Positions 35,970 through 42,054 of a DNA stretch of 42,054 nt are shown one piece after another. Source of the stretch: a virus. Its lineage: Duplodnaviria > Heunggongvirae > Uroviricota > Caudoviricetes. The position numbers and the translations under genes were made by a program. Numbering within the stretch: position 1 is the first letter of the stretch; each line of letters begins with the position of its first letter. The stretch is taken from IMG/VR virus record IMGVR_UViG_2609459819_000001, positions 1-42,054 of that record, one strand, 5' to 3'. The notes under the pieces are model-generated. The model did not search any database. It saw only the letters and a program-made list of their open reading frames with translations, and was not told the origin of the DNA.

Positions 35970-36107
35970 CGAAAACCCCGCGCAAGGCGGGATTCACGTC
36001 CGGTGCCACCGACCAAAGTTACACCGGAATTTATACCAAACCAAAAAACATCCAATGGGCGCTATCTCTGGCCCGGGGATTCTAACACTCAAAAAAGAGG
36101 ATCTCAC

Positions 36108-39017
36108 ATGGAATTTTTCCATCTGATAAAAGCCAGTCAGAAGTCTGGCAAGAAAGATGCAGTGATTTGGTTCACTGCGAAAAGTGTAGCGCGCGCCAAT
36201 CTCCAACTCGATGTGGCACTGGAAGAAGCCGGAATTGAAGAAACTGGCCGCGGTAAAGATTATGCCAAACCAATCCGCACCGATTTCCCGGTATATGACG
36301 ACCTGCCGGAAGAAGGCGCAGTGGATTACACCTGGTGCAAACGCTACGAACTGCAGAACGATGACCGCACCTGGCTGCCAAAAGTCACAGCTGAAAACTC
36401 TGACGAGAAAACGGCTCAGACCGTTGATAGTCACATAACTACTGAGTCAACGCTGCCAGAAACCGCTGGCATCACGCTGGACGAACACGACGACGACTCA
36501 ACCCTCTACCCGGTAGTGCAGATGCCGTTTCGTAAGCAACTGCTTTCCCAGTTCACCGCCGACGAACTGCGCCACCACGTAACCCGCGAAGAGTACGAAG
36601 CTATCGGCGCGCTGGAGATGGACACTGATAACAGTTACGTCCAGAACTTGCTGTTAGCTGCTGAGAACTGCCCGGACGTGAAGGGTTACGACACCAAAGA
36701 CCTGTGGCGCTACACCGATGCCATTCGCAAAGTGTTCAGCCAGGACAAGCGTCACGAACTCGCGCTGGTACTCCGTTTCACCAGAATGTGGGCGGCGACT
36801 GATTACATTGACCGTGGCATCCTGGCGCGTGAATGGGCTGCCGGTAATCACATCAGTAGTGTTCAGCGTACTGATTCCGGAACCAATGCCAACGGCGGTT
36901 ACGTCACTGACCGTGGACCTGATGCATACCATACCCTTGACACTCTCGATTTAGAGATTGCATGTGCCCTTCTGCCTATGGACTTCAACCACTTCGAGAT
37001 CCCGGGCAGCATTCTTCGTCGCGCTAAAGAAATCGTGACCAAAAAAGAAGAACCGTGGAAATCATGGAGCAGCATTCTGCGCAATCAACCCGGCGTTCTT
37101 GGCGTTAACCGCACAGCTATTTTTAACCTGATACGTATCGCGCCGGAAAATATTCATCTAACTCCTGTCGCTCACCTGGAGTTTGTTAACCGGACCATGA
37201 CTGCTGCGTTTAATGCTGCTGTTGAGTTATTGCCATTGCATGAAGCTGAGCCCGCAACACAGGAAATTCCCCAACCTGAAGGTAAGGAGTCTCCGCGCAA
37301 ATCCTTCTGCACTCACGAAGAGAACCTGCAACGCGTGCGTGAAGAAGGAGCACGCCGCCGCGCAGAGGAAGCGGCAGCACAACCGCAGAAAGTCGAACAA
37401 GAACTGGTTAAAAATGTCGGCAACGGAATATTCGACGTTACGGCTTTGCTGCAGAACTCAGCAACTCATGGCACGAAAAAGGCTACGGAGACCACCAGCA
37501 ATGTGCAGGTTCAAGAAACTGTCAGTGATGAAAAACAAGCTGGTGATGAAGTACAGCCAGGCGAAAGCAGTCTGGAGTCTGGTGAAGAGTCAGATACCAG
37601 CCAGAAGGACGATGTAGACCAGAATACGGATTCTGTCGCCAAAAATAGCGATTCTGTAAGCCAAACCGAACCAGTTGCAGCACAAACCGAGCCAGAAGCG
37701 CAATCTGACGAACCAGCTGTTGTTTATCCCGCTTATTTCGAGCCAGGCCGCTATGAAGGGCTGCCAAACGAGGTTTACCACGCCGCCAACGGCATCAGCT
37801 CAACCCAGGTGAAAGATGCGCGCGTTTCGCTGATGTACTTCAATGCGCGCCACGTAGAGAAAACCATCGTCAAAGAGCGCTCAGCGGTGCTGGACATGGG
37901 CAACTTGGTGCATGCGCTGGCGTTGCAGCCTGAACTACTGGACGCAGAATTCAGCGTTGAACCGGTGATCCCTGAAGGCGCATTCACAACGGCCGCGACC
38001 CTGCGCGCCTTTATCGATGAGCACAATGCCAGCCTGCCGGCGCTGCTGTCTGCCGACGACATCAAGGTGTTACTGGAAGAGTACAACGCCACCCTGCCGC
38101 CGCAGGTTCCGCTTGGCGCTAACCTGGAAGAAACGGCACAGAACTATATGGCGCTGCCAGCTGACTTCCAGCGTATTGATGGTGACCAGAAGCAGACGGC
38201 GACGGCAATGAAGGAATGCATTAAAGAGTACAACGCCACCCTGCCGCCGCCGGTTAAAACCAGCGGCAGCCGTGACGCGCTGCTGGAGCAGTTGGCAATC
38301 ATCAACCCTGACCTTGTGGCTCAGGAAGCACAGAAACCGGCACCACTGAAAGTGTCCGGTACCAAAGCAGACATGATCCAGGCCGTGAAGGCAGTCAAAC
38401 CAGATGCCGTATTTGCCGACGAACTGCTGGATGCCTGGCGCGATAACCCGGAAGGAAAAGTGCTGGTCACCCGCCAGCAGCTGAGCACCGCGCTGAATAT
38501 TCAAAAAGCGCTTCTGGCACACCCGACCGCCGGCATGCTGCTGACCCACCCTAGCCGAGCCGTTGAGGTGAGCTACTTTGGTTTTGACGAGGAGACGGGC
38601 TTGGAAGTTCGTGTGCGCCCTGACCTTGAGATCGACCTGGATGGCGTGCGTATAGGTGCAGACCTGAAAACCATCAGCATGTGGAATGTTAAGCAGGAAA
38701 GCCTGCGCGCCAGGCTACACCGGGAAATTATTGAACGTGATTATCACCTGAGCGCGGCTATGTACTGCGAAACCGCAGCGCTGGATCAGTTCTTCTGGAT
38801 TTTCGTCAACAAAGACGAGAACTACCACTGGATCGCCATCATCGAGGCATCCGCTGAACTACTGGAGCTGGGTATGCTCGAGTACCGCAAAGCGATGCGC
38901 AATATCGCAACCGGATTCGACACAGGTGAATGGCCAGCGCCAATCACTGCTGACTACACCGACGAACTGAACGACTTCGACCTGCGCCGCCTTGAAGCGC
39001 TGCGTACTCAGGCATAA
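36108..39017 (+). CDS. recE: RecE-like exonuclease VIII (C-terminal PD-(D/E)xK nuclease domain)
   Basis: 969 aa from ATG 36108 (AAGAGG upstream); acidic N-terminal region; C-terminal RPDLEIDLDGVRIGADLKT with Asp and D-x-K motifs; followed by recT-like gene. Confidence 0.55.
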   Translation: MEFFHLIKASQKSGKKDAVIWFTAKSVARANLQLDVALEEAGIEETGRGKDYAKPIRTDFPVYDDLPEEGAVDYTWCKRYELQNDDRTWLPKVTAENSDEKTAQTVDSHITTESTLPETAGITLDEHDDDSTLYPVVQMPFRKQLLSQFTADELRHHVTREEYEAIGALEMDTDNSYVQNLLLAAENCPDVKGYDTKDLWRYTDAIRKVFSQDKRHELALVLRFTRMWAATDYIDRGILAREWAAGNHISSVQRTDSGTNANGGYVTDRGPDAYHTLDTLDLEIACALLPMDFNHFEIPGSILRRAKEIVTKKEEPWKSWSSILRNQPGVLGVNRTAIFNLIRIAPENIHLTPVAHLEFVNRTMTAAFNAAVELLPLHEAEPATQEIPQPEGKESPRKSFCTHEENLQRVREEGARRRAEEAAAQPQKVEQELVKNVGNGIFDVTALLQNSATHGTKKATETTSNVQVQETVSDEKQAGDEVQPGESSLESGEESDTSQKDDVDQNTDSVAKNSDSVSQTEPVAAQTEPEAQSDEPAVVYPAYFEPGRYEGLPNEVYHAANGISSTQVKDARVSLMYFNARHVEKTIVKERSAVLDMGNLVHALALQPELLDAEFSVEPVIPEGAFTTAATLRAFIDEHNASLPALLSADDIKVLLEEYNATLPPQVPLGANLEETAQNYMALPADFQRIDGDQKQTATAMKECIKEYNATLPPPVKTSGSRDALLEQLAIINPDLVAQEAQKPAPLKVSGTKADMIQAVKAVKPDAVFADELLDAWRDNPEGKVLVTRQQLSTALNIQKALLAHPTAGMLLTHPSRAVEVSYFGFDEETGLEVRVRPDLEIDLDGVRIGADLKTISMWNVKQESLRARLHREIIERDYHLSAAMYCETAALDQFFWIFVNKDENYHWIAIIEASAELLELGMLEYRKAMRNIATGFDTGEWPAPITADYTDELNDFDLRRLEALRTQA

Positions 39018-39028
39018 GGGGAATGATG

Positions 39029-40141
39029 ATGGAAAACACGAATATCGTAACCGCTGAACAGCAGACTCCAAACACGATCTCAGCCAGCAATGCCATTTTC
39101 AACGTGCAGGCTTTAACCCAGCTTCAGTCTGTCGCCGGGTTGATGGCACAGGCAGCCGTAACGGTGCCTGAGCACCTCCGCGGCAATCCGGCAGACTGCA
39201 TGGCCATCATCATGCAGGCGATGCAGTGGGGTATGAACCCTTACGCCGTGGCGCAAAAGACGCACCTGGTTAACGGTGTCCTGGGATACGAAGCGCAACT
39301 GGTTAATGCGGTGATCTCCAGCTCAAACGCCATCGTTGGCCGCTTTCACTATGAGTACGAGGGCGACTGGTCGAAATGTGCCAGCAGCCGCGAGATAACC
39401 GTTAAAAAGCCTGCGAAAGGTGGCGGGACGTACGACAAGAAAGAAATGGTACGCGGTTGGGAAAGTGCTGATGAACAAGGACTGTCGGTACGGGTAGGTG
39501 CCGTTATTCGCGGTGAAAGTGATATCACCTGGGGAGAGCCTGTTTTCCTCTCCAGCGTAATCACACGTAATTCTCCACTTTGGGTATCAAACCCGAAACA
39601 GCAGATCGCTTATCTGGCACTCAAATACTGGGCGCGCCTATATTGCCCTGCAGTTGTTCTTGGTGTGTACACCCCTGATGAGATTGAACAGCGCACAGAA
39701 AAAGAGATCAACCCAACGCCGCAACGCGTTAGCCTGGCTGATATCTCAGGTGACACCGTCACAACCACGCAAAGCGCACAGGAATCGTCGGTAAATGTCG
39801 ACTCTCTTGCCGATGATTTCCGCGAACGCATCGAATCTGCTCAGGACGTGGATAGCGCCAAATCGCTGCGTGCCGACATTGAAACGGCGAAAGCTACGCT
39901 GGGATCCGCACTATTCACCGAGCTGAAAAACAAAGCCGTAAAGCGTTATTACCTAGTGGATGCACGCAACAAGGTTGAGGAGGCTATTAAATCCCTGCCC
40001 CAGCCCGACGAGCCGCATGCAGCCGAACGGTTCGCTGAAGCCGAGCGCATGCTTGCATCTTCAAAGCGTCACTTAGGCGATGAACTGCACGATCAATTCA
40101 GCATCACCCTGGCGGATATGAAACCGGAATACGTGGCCTGA
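39029..40141 (+). CDS. recT: RecT/Bet-family single-strand annealing protein
   Basis: AIIMQAMQWGMNPYAVAQKTHLV and NPKQQIAYLALKYWARLYCP parallel lambda Bet/RecT motifs; start ambiguous among three consecutive ATGs (39023/39026/39029). Confidence 0.6.
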   Translation: MENTNIVTAEQQTPNTISASNAIFNVQALTQLQSVAGLMAQAAVTVPEHLRGNPADCMAIIMQAMQWGMNPYAVAQKTHLVNGVLGYEAQLVNAVISSSNAIVGRFHYEYEGDWSKCASSREITVKKPAKGGGTYDKKEMVRGWESADEQGLSVRVGAVIRGESDITWGEPVFLSSVITRNSPLWVSNPKQQIAYLALKYWARLYCPAVVLGVYTPDEIEQRTEKEINPTPQRVSLADISGDTVTTTQSAQESSVNVDSLADDFRERIESAQDVDSAKSLRADIETAKATLGSALFTELKNKAVKRYYLVDARNKVEEAIKSLPQPDEPHAAERFAEAERMLASSKRHLGDELHDQFSITLADMKPEYVA

Positions 40142-40463: not shown

Positions 40464-40661
40464 ATGGATGATATTTTGGTAACGTCAGACCTGACCAGTC
40501 GCTACAAAATTTCACGCAAAACCCTTTGGTCATGGCAAAGTGCAGACACAATGCCTCGGGGCTTCGTATGCCCGTTCCCACCCCCTGACTGGCCCGGCAA
40601 CCCTAACCGCTGGCGCTCTGAGTCAATCAAAGAGTGGGAGGATAAAAAGAAGATAAATTAA
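40464..40661 (+). CDS. xis: Excisionase / AlpA-family DNA-binding protein
   Basis: 65 aa from ATG 40464 (GGAGAG upstream); [19 protein letters not shown] pattern; 4-nt convergent overlap with integrase stop. Confidence 0.45.
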
Positions 40662-41851
40662 CTGAAGGGCTCTCCGATGATCTCTTCAAGATGGCTCTGC
40701 CAAACGCGGAGCCAGTGTTTCTGATCATCGATATAGTCATGAAGGTTGTAATGCGCCATAACCCCCACCATCTGATGCCCGAGCAGCTTTTCAATTACGT
40801 GCGGCGGGCAACCTAACTCAGAGAGATTTGTGGCTATCGTCCGCCTCATATCATGAAGCGACCACTCTGCCATACCTGTTCCATTCCAAATAGAACGGGC
40901 GTAATTGGATGCCACAGGTGAATGAACGGGCGAATCTTTGATCCCGCCATCAATTTTACGTTGTGAAGTCACCAGGTGATTGGTGTTTATTTTCTTGAGG
41001 TGATTTCTGACCAGGTTAACGGCGGCGTCTGAGAGTCCCCTTCTAATATGTACCCGAGTTTTATAACTGCCCGCAGGCACGACCCACTCATTATCATCCA
41101 ATCGAAACCATGATCTCTCACTAAGTCGAATCTCAGCCGTACGGCATCCGGTAAGCATAATAAATTTCACCAGGAAAACGGACTCTATCGACATATGGCT
41201 TTTCAACCACTGATAGATTTTGCGCAGATCGTCATCGTCCATCCTGCGAGTTCTCTTTTTAGGCTTTTGCCCGACATCAGATGGCAGTAATCCCTCGAGT
41301 GGGTTTGAGGCGATCACACTTCTGTTAACGCAGAACCTAAACGCCCGTTTGCACAGCGAAAGCATGTAATGAGCCATCACCCTGCTTTCTATAGAATCGA
41401 AGACGTTGATCCAGTGCATTTTCGCTGTGTTATCGACTTTGACATTCTTCATCGGTTCGGCGATATGTTTCTCAAACACCTGGCGATAGTAATCGACTTT
41501 AACTAGCCCGTTAGCGATACAGTGCCTTTCAATCCAGTAATTGAACGCTTCGGCAACGGACATCGCTTCCTGTCGGGTCTGCTTATCCAGCTTCACCTGC
41601 TCTCGCGGATCCAGTCCCTCAGTTAACCAGTTTCTGAATTGTTGGCGACGCTCTCTTGCCTGGGTGATACTCATTGCAGGATAATCACCAACATTGAGTT
41701 TTACCGCTTTACCGGCCCAGCGATACCGATAGAAAAATGATATTTTTCCGGCCTGGCTGATTCTGGCGTTGAGCCCGTGCGAATCAGAAATAATCTCGAT
41801 ATCATCTCTTTTCTTGCCGAGCGCCTTCCTGAGCTTTGTGTCGGTGATCAT
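40658..41851 (-). CDS. int: Tyrosine integrase (P4-like, N-terminal arm-binding domain)
   Basis: C-terminal [28 protein letters not shown]...MAHY catalytic region; N-terminal [14 protein letters not shown]...[23 protein letters not shown]; start taken at internal ATG 41851. Confidence 0.8.
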
Positions 41852-41856
41852 TGAAT

Positions 41857-41898
41857 GGGTACACATTTTTGTTTTTGGGTACACAAAAGTGTACACAA
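41857..41898. repeat. Three direct repeats G(G/T)GTACACA immediately upstream of integrase start
   Basis: Copies at 41857-41865, 41878-41886, 41889-41897 (GTGTACAC is palindromic). Confidence 0.35.
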
Positions 41899-42054
41899 AG
41901 TTGCCCACTCAAAGCTACACGCAATGTAACACTAGTTCGCAGAGTGTTATGATTTACATCCTTGAAAGCCTGCTGGATAAGGGTTTAGCGTAACAGAACG
42001 TTTTTACGCGGAATTGTTCGTAATATGCCAAATGACAATTTAAGAAAGTGTTCT

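Follow-up and report, generated by a model that had tools for sequence, protein, structure and literature searches.

A predicted helical, SAP-derived insert at the DNA-channel rim of a lambdoid RecE exonuclease, and rare gain and loss of its repeat unit

The RecE protein of the Rac prophage of Escherichia coli K-12 (exonuclease VIII) is one of the closest known relatives of the nuclease that we have analyzed here. The toroidal tetramer and the processive 5′-3′ exonuclease activity on double-stranded DNA (dsDNA) are known for K-12 RecE only (PMC11611040). Its nuclease domain is also the only one solved, as 3H4R. Little is understood of the rim loops that capture DNA in it, which are disordered; residues 665-698 form a 34-residue, largely disordered loop at the rim of the DNA channel (PMC11611040). 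We have studied the corresponding region of a RecE-family exonuclease encoded in the 42,054 nucleotides of the IMG/VR virus record IMGVR_UViG_2609459819_000001 (the window), within which an earlier note, made from the sequence alone, had described a repeat. Where K-12 RecE has its disordered loop, this protein has a helical array of 156 residues that is predicted to be folded. We consider it probable that this is a SAP-derived array at the channel rim that captures dsDNA ends, and that its units are gained and lost through its DNA repeats.

The gene lies on the plus strand.

36003..39017, + strand: RecE-family exonuclease gene; mechanical open reading frame (ORF) from GTG 36003, 1004 amino acids; Pfam Exonuc_VIII and DUF3799.

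The start is likely to be ATG 36108 (MEFFHLIK..., 969 amino acids), following the annotation of phage mEp237 (coding sequence of 2910 nucleotides). Pfam matches, catalytic residues, predicted fold and an adjacent RecT gene all indicate that the product is a RecE-family exonuclease. Exonuc_VIII scores 78.5 bits (cutoff 25) in the N-terminal region, and the DUF3799 PD-(D/E)XK family 39.7 bits (cutoff 26) at the C-terminus. The catalytic residues H63, D300, D313 and K315 (numbering of a 430-residue query; ORF residues 637, 874, 887 and 889) are invariant across 53 homologs, as are Y18, H19, G59, R298, Y340 and Y347. The nuclease was modeled by AlphaFold2 with a 53-sequence alignment, and the best Foldseek match of the model is 3h4r (E = 6e-10, target-normalised template modelling (TM) score 0.61). 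The protein thus has the family, the fold, the His...D...DxK residues and the recE-recT gene pair in common with K-12 RecE, and both carry a variable element at the DNA-channel rim. In sequence the two nuclease domains are distant, with a phmmer E value of 0.0017 and 20% identity in the Foldseek alignment.

Alignment with 3H4R divides the nuclease domain into three parts.

37776..37985, + strand: N-terminal segment of the nuclease domain (YHAANG ... LVHALAL ... FSVEPVIPEGAF), aligning to 3H4R chain residues 5-70.
37986..38453, + strand: helical insert of 156 residues (ORF residues 662-817), in the order A1-A2-C-A3-B1-B2, with no counterpart in the 3H4R alignment.
38454..39014, + strand: PD-(D/E)XK catalytic core (GKVLVT ... 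RPD at residues 873-874, D-L-K at residues 887-889, YHLSAAMY), aligning to 3H4R residues 92-252.

The K-12 structure aligns to ORF residues 590 to approximately 660, and then again to residues 818-982. The catalytic histidine is ORF residue 637, in a motif at nucleotides 37905-37925, and the insert is placed between the helix that carries it and the D...DxK core, i.e., within the nuclease domain. Taking His-652 of K-12 RecE as chain index 51, the segment that has been replaced is residues 665-698. The earlier note had put the repeats in a linker before the nuclease domain; this is incorrect, since the insert takes the place of these K-12 residues and 3H4R aligns on both sides of the repeats.

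The insert is built from two kinds of unit and a spacer.

37986..38045, + strand: unit A1 (TTAATLRAFIDEHNASLPAL); holds the degenerate repeat copy 38017-38048; aligns to A2 and A3 by hhalign; Asn invariant.
38046..38105, + strand: unit A2 (LSADDIKVLLEEYNATLPPQ); holds the first exact 27-mer, 38077-38103.
38106..38192, + strand: spacer C (VPLGANLEETAQNYMALPADFQRIDGDQK), 29 residues; one short AlphaFold2 helix, 134-142; signature Y-x-x-L-P-x-x-F-Q-x-I.
38193..38252, + strand: unit A3 (QTATAMKECIKEYNATLPPP); holds the second exact 27-mer, 38224-38250.
38253..38345, + strand: unit B1 (VKTSGSRDALLEQLAIINPDLVAQEAQKPAP); forms a SAP-like helix-loop-helix jointly with A3; aligns to B2 by hhalign.
38346..38453, + strand: unit B2 and trailing helix (LKVSGTKADMIQAVKAVKPDAVFADELLDAWRDNPE); the part nearest to canonical SAP helix 2; sub-threshold Pfam SAP match.

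The 20-residue A units are clearly related in hhalign comparisons, with probabilities of 98.3% for A1 with A2 and 97.9% for A1 with A3, and E values of 1e-12 to 1e-14 among the three. The 31-residue B units align with each other at 95.4% probability (E = 2e-8), and A-versus-B controls gave probabilities of 3-4%. The 47-residue blocks A2-C and A3-B1 also align (97.5%, 41 columns), chiefly through their A parts. We also considered spacer C as a degenerate B unit. By eye its Gly-to-Pro spacing is the same, but hhalign gave a probability of just 3-15% and we rejected the assignment. The A units end in [YH]N-x-[ST]-L-P, so that the repeated motif comprises the end of helix A and the turn after it, while the B units carry K-x-S-G-x-[KR]-x-x-L. 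In relatives down to 24% identity the sole invariant residues of the insert are the three motif asparagines and one leucine; G96, R98 and G127 are nearly invariant in the insert alignment.

Does this region adopt a structure, or is it the ordinary disordered linker that the earlier note named as an alternative? The AlphaFold2 model of the nuclease has a mean predicted local distance difference test score (pLDDT) of 94.8 and a predicted TM score of 0.79, with the blocks of the insert at 85-97 and eight helices. Modeled separately, the insert alone gave a pLDDT of 90.3. The high values in both models argue that the insert is not a disordered linker. Helices 159-172 and 183-193 flank a loop, and helix 214-224 is preceded by VSGTK. 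The predicted structure has the layout of a SAP domain, i.e., two helices, an extended loop of approximately 10 residues, and G-x-[KR] opening the second helix.

The ancestry of the insert was examined in a survey of 1.84 billion representative proteins, in which the segment was measured between two conserved anchors. At this site many DUF3799 nucleases have 4-16 residues and others have 45-58 residues; proteins of the window type have 155, and expanded forms 206-208. In three of the 45-58-residue forms the segment matches Pfam SAP (PF02037) significantly and over nearly the whole profile, with scores of 34.4 (P0240), 33.4 (P0245) and 29.6 bits (P0263) against a cutoff of 23.9; P0240 is labeled "DUF3799/SAP domain" by the JGI pipeline. 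A profile of these single-SAP inserts aligns by hhalign to a splice of A1 and B2 (99.7%, E = 2.4e-26), to B2 (99.3%, E = 1e-20), to the full insert (99.2%, E = 1.2e-19), to A3-B1 (96.4%, E = 1.1e-9) and to A2-C (86.8%, E = 4.3e-6). Among 25 window-type inserts, moreover, 16 have SAP as their highest-ranking Pfam family (best E = 1.1e-5). The next families are SAP_new25, Thymopoietin/LEM and Ish1, which we take to be helix-extension-helix relatives. The units of the window are thus homologous at the level of profiles to a domain that is significant at the same site in distant relatives.

In the hhalign alignment the motif asparagine falls in the column of the conserved glycine of SAP, at the end of helix 1. 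Glycine and asparagine are the residues that most readily take the left-handed conformation used in helix capping. The alignment therefore indicates a structural role for the motif in helix capping and the turn. The earlier note had also offered a protein-binding motif; we find no positive evidence for such a function of the peptide, and the match of Asn to the SAP glycine favors the cap or turn.

From these relationships we would suggest that a single SAP domain stood at the rim site in an ancestor, and that its half-units A and B were duplicated to give three A units, two B units and the spacer, which would fold into the all-helical module at the rim of the DNA-entry channel. The product would differ from a single 35-residue SAP domain in that the half-units were duplicated separately and the spacer added; it also has Asn in place of the helix-1 Gly, it is acidic, and its DNA binding is putative. 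A canonical SAP insert is found in P0263 (locus L135, 2677-5954, a metagenome contig), a stand-alone DUF3799 nuclease of 336 residues. Genes for an AAA_24 protein and for SSB adjoin it in place of RecT, so that the ancestral SAP module is not tied to RecT. As the P0263 locus illustrates, SAP-bearing nucleases pair with differing recombinase types.

At the DNA level the window has exactly two plus-strand occurrences of the 27-mer AAGAGTACAACGCCACCCTGCCGCCGC, one at 38077-38103 and the other at 38224-38250. No such match arose in 100 dinucleotide-preserving shuffles, and if one mismatch is allowed the two copies are alike over 32 nucleotides. The third, degenerate copy (38017-38048; repeat family D1) has 75% identity, and the start-to-start distances among the three are 60 and 147 nucleotides. 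In the frame of the ORF at 36003-39017 the copies encode IDEHNASLPALL, LEEYNATLPPQV and IKEYNATLPPPV. The two exact copies and the degenerate one are therefore as the earlier note described them. It had further described tandem repeats of approximately 49 residues. A spacing of 147 nucleotides, or 49 codons, does exist; it is the distance from the second copy to the third, and the true repeating unit is of about 20 residues, present three times at spacings of 20 and 49 residues. Tandem Repeats Finder, run on 37500-39017, gave 0 arrays at a score of at least 30, indicating that only the short core of 27-32 nucleotides is alike. With two exact copies 147 bp apart, and no head-to-tail array of near-identical units, we rejected the description as a tandem DNA repeat.

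The exact copies bound a unit that can be gained or lost.

38077..38223, + strand: unit of 147 bp, or 49 codons, delimited by the 27-mers; present twice in tandem in E. coli CUWW10, lost from E. coli 730V1.

Synthetic queries spanning the expected junctions were built from the window allele and run against 5426 complete E. coli genomes, of which 35 matched. The duplication junction is contiguous in CUWW10 only, where a perfect tandem duplication of 147 bp leaves three 27-mers and an intact frame. The deletion junction is contiguous (167/167 nucleotides) only in the O19:H7 strain 730V1, which has lost exactly 147 bp. RecE of 730V1 is an intact ORF of 920 residues, the last 389 of which are those of the window with 0 differences besides the exact loss of 49 residues. 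A deletion of this type is also seen in a Salmonella prophage remnant, where the junction falls within the shared 20-mer. The suggestion that the 27-mers are recombinogenic is thus borne out by the existence of both reciprocal products in complete E. coli genomes, together with the Salmonella junction. Such events are rare, and there is a strong preference for the standard form, with varying alleles in 2 of 35 E. coli genomes and 0 of 110 viral loci; this is not a frequent polymorphism. As in other intragenic repeat polymorphisms, the breakpoints fall within short direct repeats, here the 20-27 bp of identity, and the products are reciprocal, plus or minus one unit, and in frame. Unlike the typical case the locus has no more than two exact copies, separated by 147 bp, the events are rare, and there is no on/off switching. 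The conserved motif leaves 20-27 bp of identity between A2 and A3, which probably suffices for rare unequal recombination or slippage, adding or removing one 49-codon unit in frame.

How constant is the insert across relatives? Over this region lambdoid phage mEp237 and the prophages of 34 complete E. coli genomes show 99.9% identity to the window, and RefSeq labels the E. coli copies "RecE family exodeoxyribonuclease"; the mEp237 exonuclease itself is 99.9% identical to that of the window, which is essentially the mEp237 allele. The RecE proteins of Gifsy-1, Gifsy-2, HK225, SPN3UB and mEp237 are orthologs, 80-99.9% identical in their DNA, that share the 155-residue insert with its three motifs, and the window protein does not differ from them in kind. 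The 155-residue architecture aligns without gaps among phages of E. coli, Salmonella, Klebsiella, Aeromonas and Actinobacillus, and is kept at approximately 25% identity. It is found in all 110 scorable IMG/VR viral loci (82 distinct sequences). Ten viral loci without both anchors, which were checked for hidden length variants, proved to be contig ends, frameshifted remnants or RecE-RecT fusions. Among the matches listed, all full-length E. coli alleles but one have the same insert length. In some remnants a deletion joins the RecE insert region to RecT, e.g., "...LAIINPDLV|SNPKQQIAYLALKYW..." in L026 (IMG/VR 3300012279_000030, around 4354). An E. coli match (H94, NZ_OZ510750.1, 2630476-2631192) stops at query position 717, corresponding to window 38366.

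Older expansions are also seen. P0013 has an additional 49-residue unit, while one A and one B unit have been added in P0012 (E. coli), in P0110, P0119 and P0120 (Klebsiella), and in P0121. Independent expansions occur in the Photobacterium-type proteins P0161 and P0166, and extra-unit variants are present in metagenomes as well. An unrelated repeat family, GKPENQxLKP[ST]DKxI..VE.W / GKPEPYxGKPTDKQI..Y..W, occupies the same rim-loop site in a related RecE/DUF3799 lineage (P0176, P0177, P0181, P0185, P0187, P0191, P0200 and P0204), with inserts of 43, 86, 124, 133 and 180 residues. Repeats have thus expanded here a second time, independently. One of these proteins, P0177 (locus L134, 3001-6882), has no precomputed Pfam hit and adjoins a RecT of 373 residues.

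These data bear on an explanation that builds on the earlier note, namely that the region is a disordered and flexible linker, with recombinogenic repeats that serve to change its length. In its support, alleles with 147 bp more or less do occur in frame, and other lineages carry extra units, so the repeat number is nearly but not wholly invariant among relatives. But the region is no linker; it lies within the nuclease domain and is confidently folded in prediction, its length is strongly conserved, the architecture persists among very divergent proteins, and there is no tandem array. We regard this explanation as very improbable.

The exact identity of the two 27-mers calls for a separate account, and for this we compared 92 distinct IMG/VR alleles. 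This set was ascertained on the 20-mer core, so that the apparent conservation of A3 within it cannot be interpreted. The identity could be the result of a recent, short gene-conversion tract between A2 and A3 in the lineage of the window. All eight complete codons within the 27-mer are identical, which has a probability of approximately 6e-4 under the codon usage of the ORF if codons are chosen independently. The flanks of the copies have diverged about an identical core, and tails specific to a lineage are common to its copies: those of the window end in CCGCCGC, the three of HK225 all have CCAGCGC, and Klebsiella has CCCGCCCAGGT. The window allele is moreover extreme, with 2 differences per 30 nucleotides between A2 and A3, a level that 2 of the 92 distinct alleles reach. 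Against conversion, the A2-A3 distance within genomes, 5.80 per 30 nucleotides, equals that between genomes, 5.93, and a permutation test on the 9-nucleotide tail outside the ascertained core gave P = 0.12. The 20-mer core is common in A3 (88 of 92 alleles, in a set ascertained on that 20-mer), and most codons of the core (TAC, AAC, ACC, CTG and CCG) are those preferred in enterobacteria. The alternative is that ancestral codons have been retained under a shared codon preference. We hold a conversion tract in the window lineage to be possible, with the odds somewhat against it. Pervasive concerted evolution, which the shared tails had first suggested to us, was dropped, since the equal distances and the permutation test do not support it or gene conversion as a general process. 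The identity of the 27-mers in the window may thus reflect one short conversion tract on top of motif constraint and shared preferred codons. One allele, L052 (IMG/VR 3300014726_000006, 839-1065), has the 20-mer GAGTACAACGCCACCCTGCC in all three motif copies at spacings of 60 and 147 nucleotides; among the 92 it alone has the 20-mer in A1 as well.

What might such a module do at the channel rim? An analogy is offered by the SAP domain of Ku70, which lies at the aperture through which DNA enters the Ku ring and has been termed a "flexible entry gate" (PMC8653891). It speeds the initial loading of Ku onto DNA ends and leaves sliding unaffected (PMC10681742). Like the SAP domain of Ku70, the module of the window RecE would belong to a ring, here a presumed one, through which DNA ends are threaded, and would be placed where DNA enters. 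Each subunit of that ring would hold a multi-SAP arm where the channel opens, and by analogy with Ku70 the arm would help to capture and thread dsDNA ends.

A number of points weigh against this proposal. The insert of the window scores just 14.3-14.4 bits against Pfam SAP, below the gathering cutoff of 23.9, and the match is confined to profile positions 19-32, corresponding to helix 2 in B2. Foldseek found no counterpart of the whole 163-residue insert model in the PDB (best E = 0.72) or BFVD (best E = 0.80), so that the SAP assignment rests on sequence and profile homology rather than a match of fold. We therefore term the insert SAP-derived, having profile homology together with a sub-cutoff score and no Foldseek counterpart; judged by its sequence, it is not a formal member of the SAP family. 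The insert is also acidic (net charge −10, isoelectric point 4.5; family mean −6.7), where canonical single-SAP forms have charges of +3 and +4, and is thus a poor fit to simple electrostatic binding of DNA. The conserved basic residues gather at the K-x-SG-x-[KR] turns. Lastly, the rarity of copy-number variants makes the variation in length look like occasional accident rather than a selected mechanism.

In the main rival to this proposal the acidic helical array would instead be a platform for protein docking, its units providing several sites for the C-terminal tail of RecT, SSB or a host factor. The RecT concerned is encoded directly downstream.

39023..40141, + strand: RecT-family annealase, 372 amino acids; Pfam RecT, 125.5 bits; directly downstream of RecE.

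Its tail comprises residues 231-372, some 140 amino acids past the Pfam RecT core match (residues 39-228). Apart from the net charge of −10, docking has precedents: SAP domains can bind proteins, that of SLX4 being reported to bind MUS81 (PMC13171448), and in phage lambda the C-terminal domain of the annealase is reported to dock on the exonuclease (PMC6393309; PMC11611040). In the loci compared, the RecT tail also varies with the type of RecE. In the RecT beside the Salmonella single-module RecE (P0148, insert of 57 residues) the tail is 63% identical, and so more conserved than the RecT core (53%); it is unalignable beside RecE proteins with no insert (P0195) or GKPE repeats (P0177). The C-terminal tail of RecT may on this evidence be a RecE-docking domain. 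This correlation is drawn from four loci in which the RecE cores differ too, however, and any part of the nuclease might be where docking takes place. In addition, the whole nuclease core is as acidic as the insert (net −10), the conserved G-x-[KR] that opens helix 2 agrees with the SAP profile at the equivalent positions, and the canonical single-SAP nuclease P0263 lacks a RecT partner. We consider a docking platform unlikely, and continue to favor an array that captures DNA ends.

A wider proposal, which we put forward as speculative and rather doubtful, is that the rim loop of RecE-type ring exonucleases is an evolutionary "accordion", a site at which arrays of small helical units grow and shrink by single units and so tune the capture of DNA ends or the docking of partners. 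If this were true, the units in the Gifsy/mEp237 lineage would be split SAP halves, giving inserts of 57, 106, 155, 204 and 206-208 residues, and the GKPENQ/GKPEPY repeat (43 to 180 residues) would have colonized the same site in an unrelated lineage. The natural E. coli alleles with 106, 155 and 204 residues would then be a ready-made series with different activities. In a more radical version of this proposal, the array, being acidic, would not bind DNA but mimic it as a gate or decoy.

The gene order recE-recT is the same in mEp237 and in every relative examined, and an integrase gene lies further downstream.

40658-41908, − strand: integrase, downstream of RecT.

With long runs of minus-strand ORFs at 1-35000, the remainder of the window has the look of a complete lambdoid prophage, and a search of the window for tRNA and tmRNA genes found none. 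The N-terminal half of RecE (window 36003-37730) varies widely in length among alleles whose nuclease domains are near-identical: the protein has 969/1004 residues in the window, 1178 in CUWW10 (L001, 979-4515) and 920 in 730V1 (L010, 1602-4364). The unequal lengths indicate that this half is mosaic or prone to insertion and deletion.

The gene family, the SAP domain and repeat-mediated insertions and deletions are already known, and pipelines tag SAP in some DUF3799 proteins. In the literature we found no description of a split or expanded SAP array in a Gifsy/mEp237-type RecE, in searches whose matches were polluted by other uses of the terms ("receptor", and SAP for strand-annealing protein), nor of the equivalence of the insert to the K-12 rim loop or of natural alleles with 49 residues more or less. 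RecE and RecT are workhorses of recombineering, and in the widespread Gifsy/mEp237-type RecE the rim loop is replaced by a SAP-derived multi-helix array that is predicted to be folded. The insert, predicted to be well ordered, may be a target for visualizing the engagement of DNA, which has so far failed with K-12 RecE. The locus would also exemplify a small DNA-binding domain that evolves by duplication of half-units, and the DNA identity of a short conserved motif that drives gain and loss of units in frame. The natural alleles, with inserts of 106, 155 and 204 residues in otherwise identical proteins, offer a testable handle on the contribution of the rim element to loading, processivity and docking.

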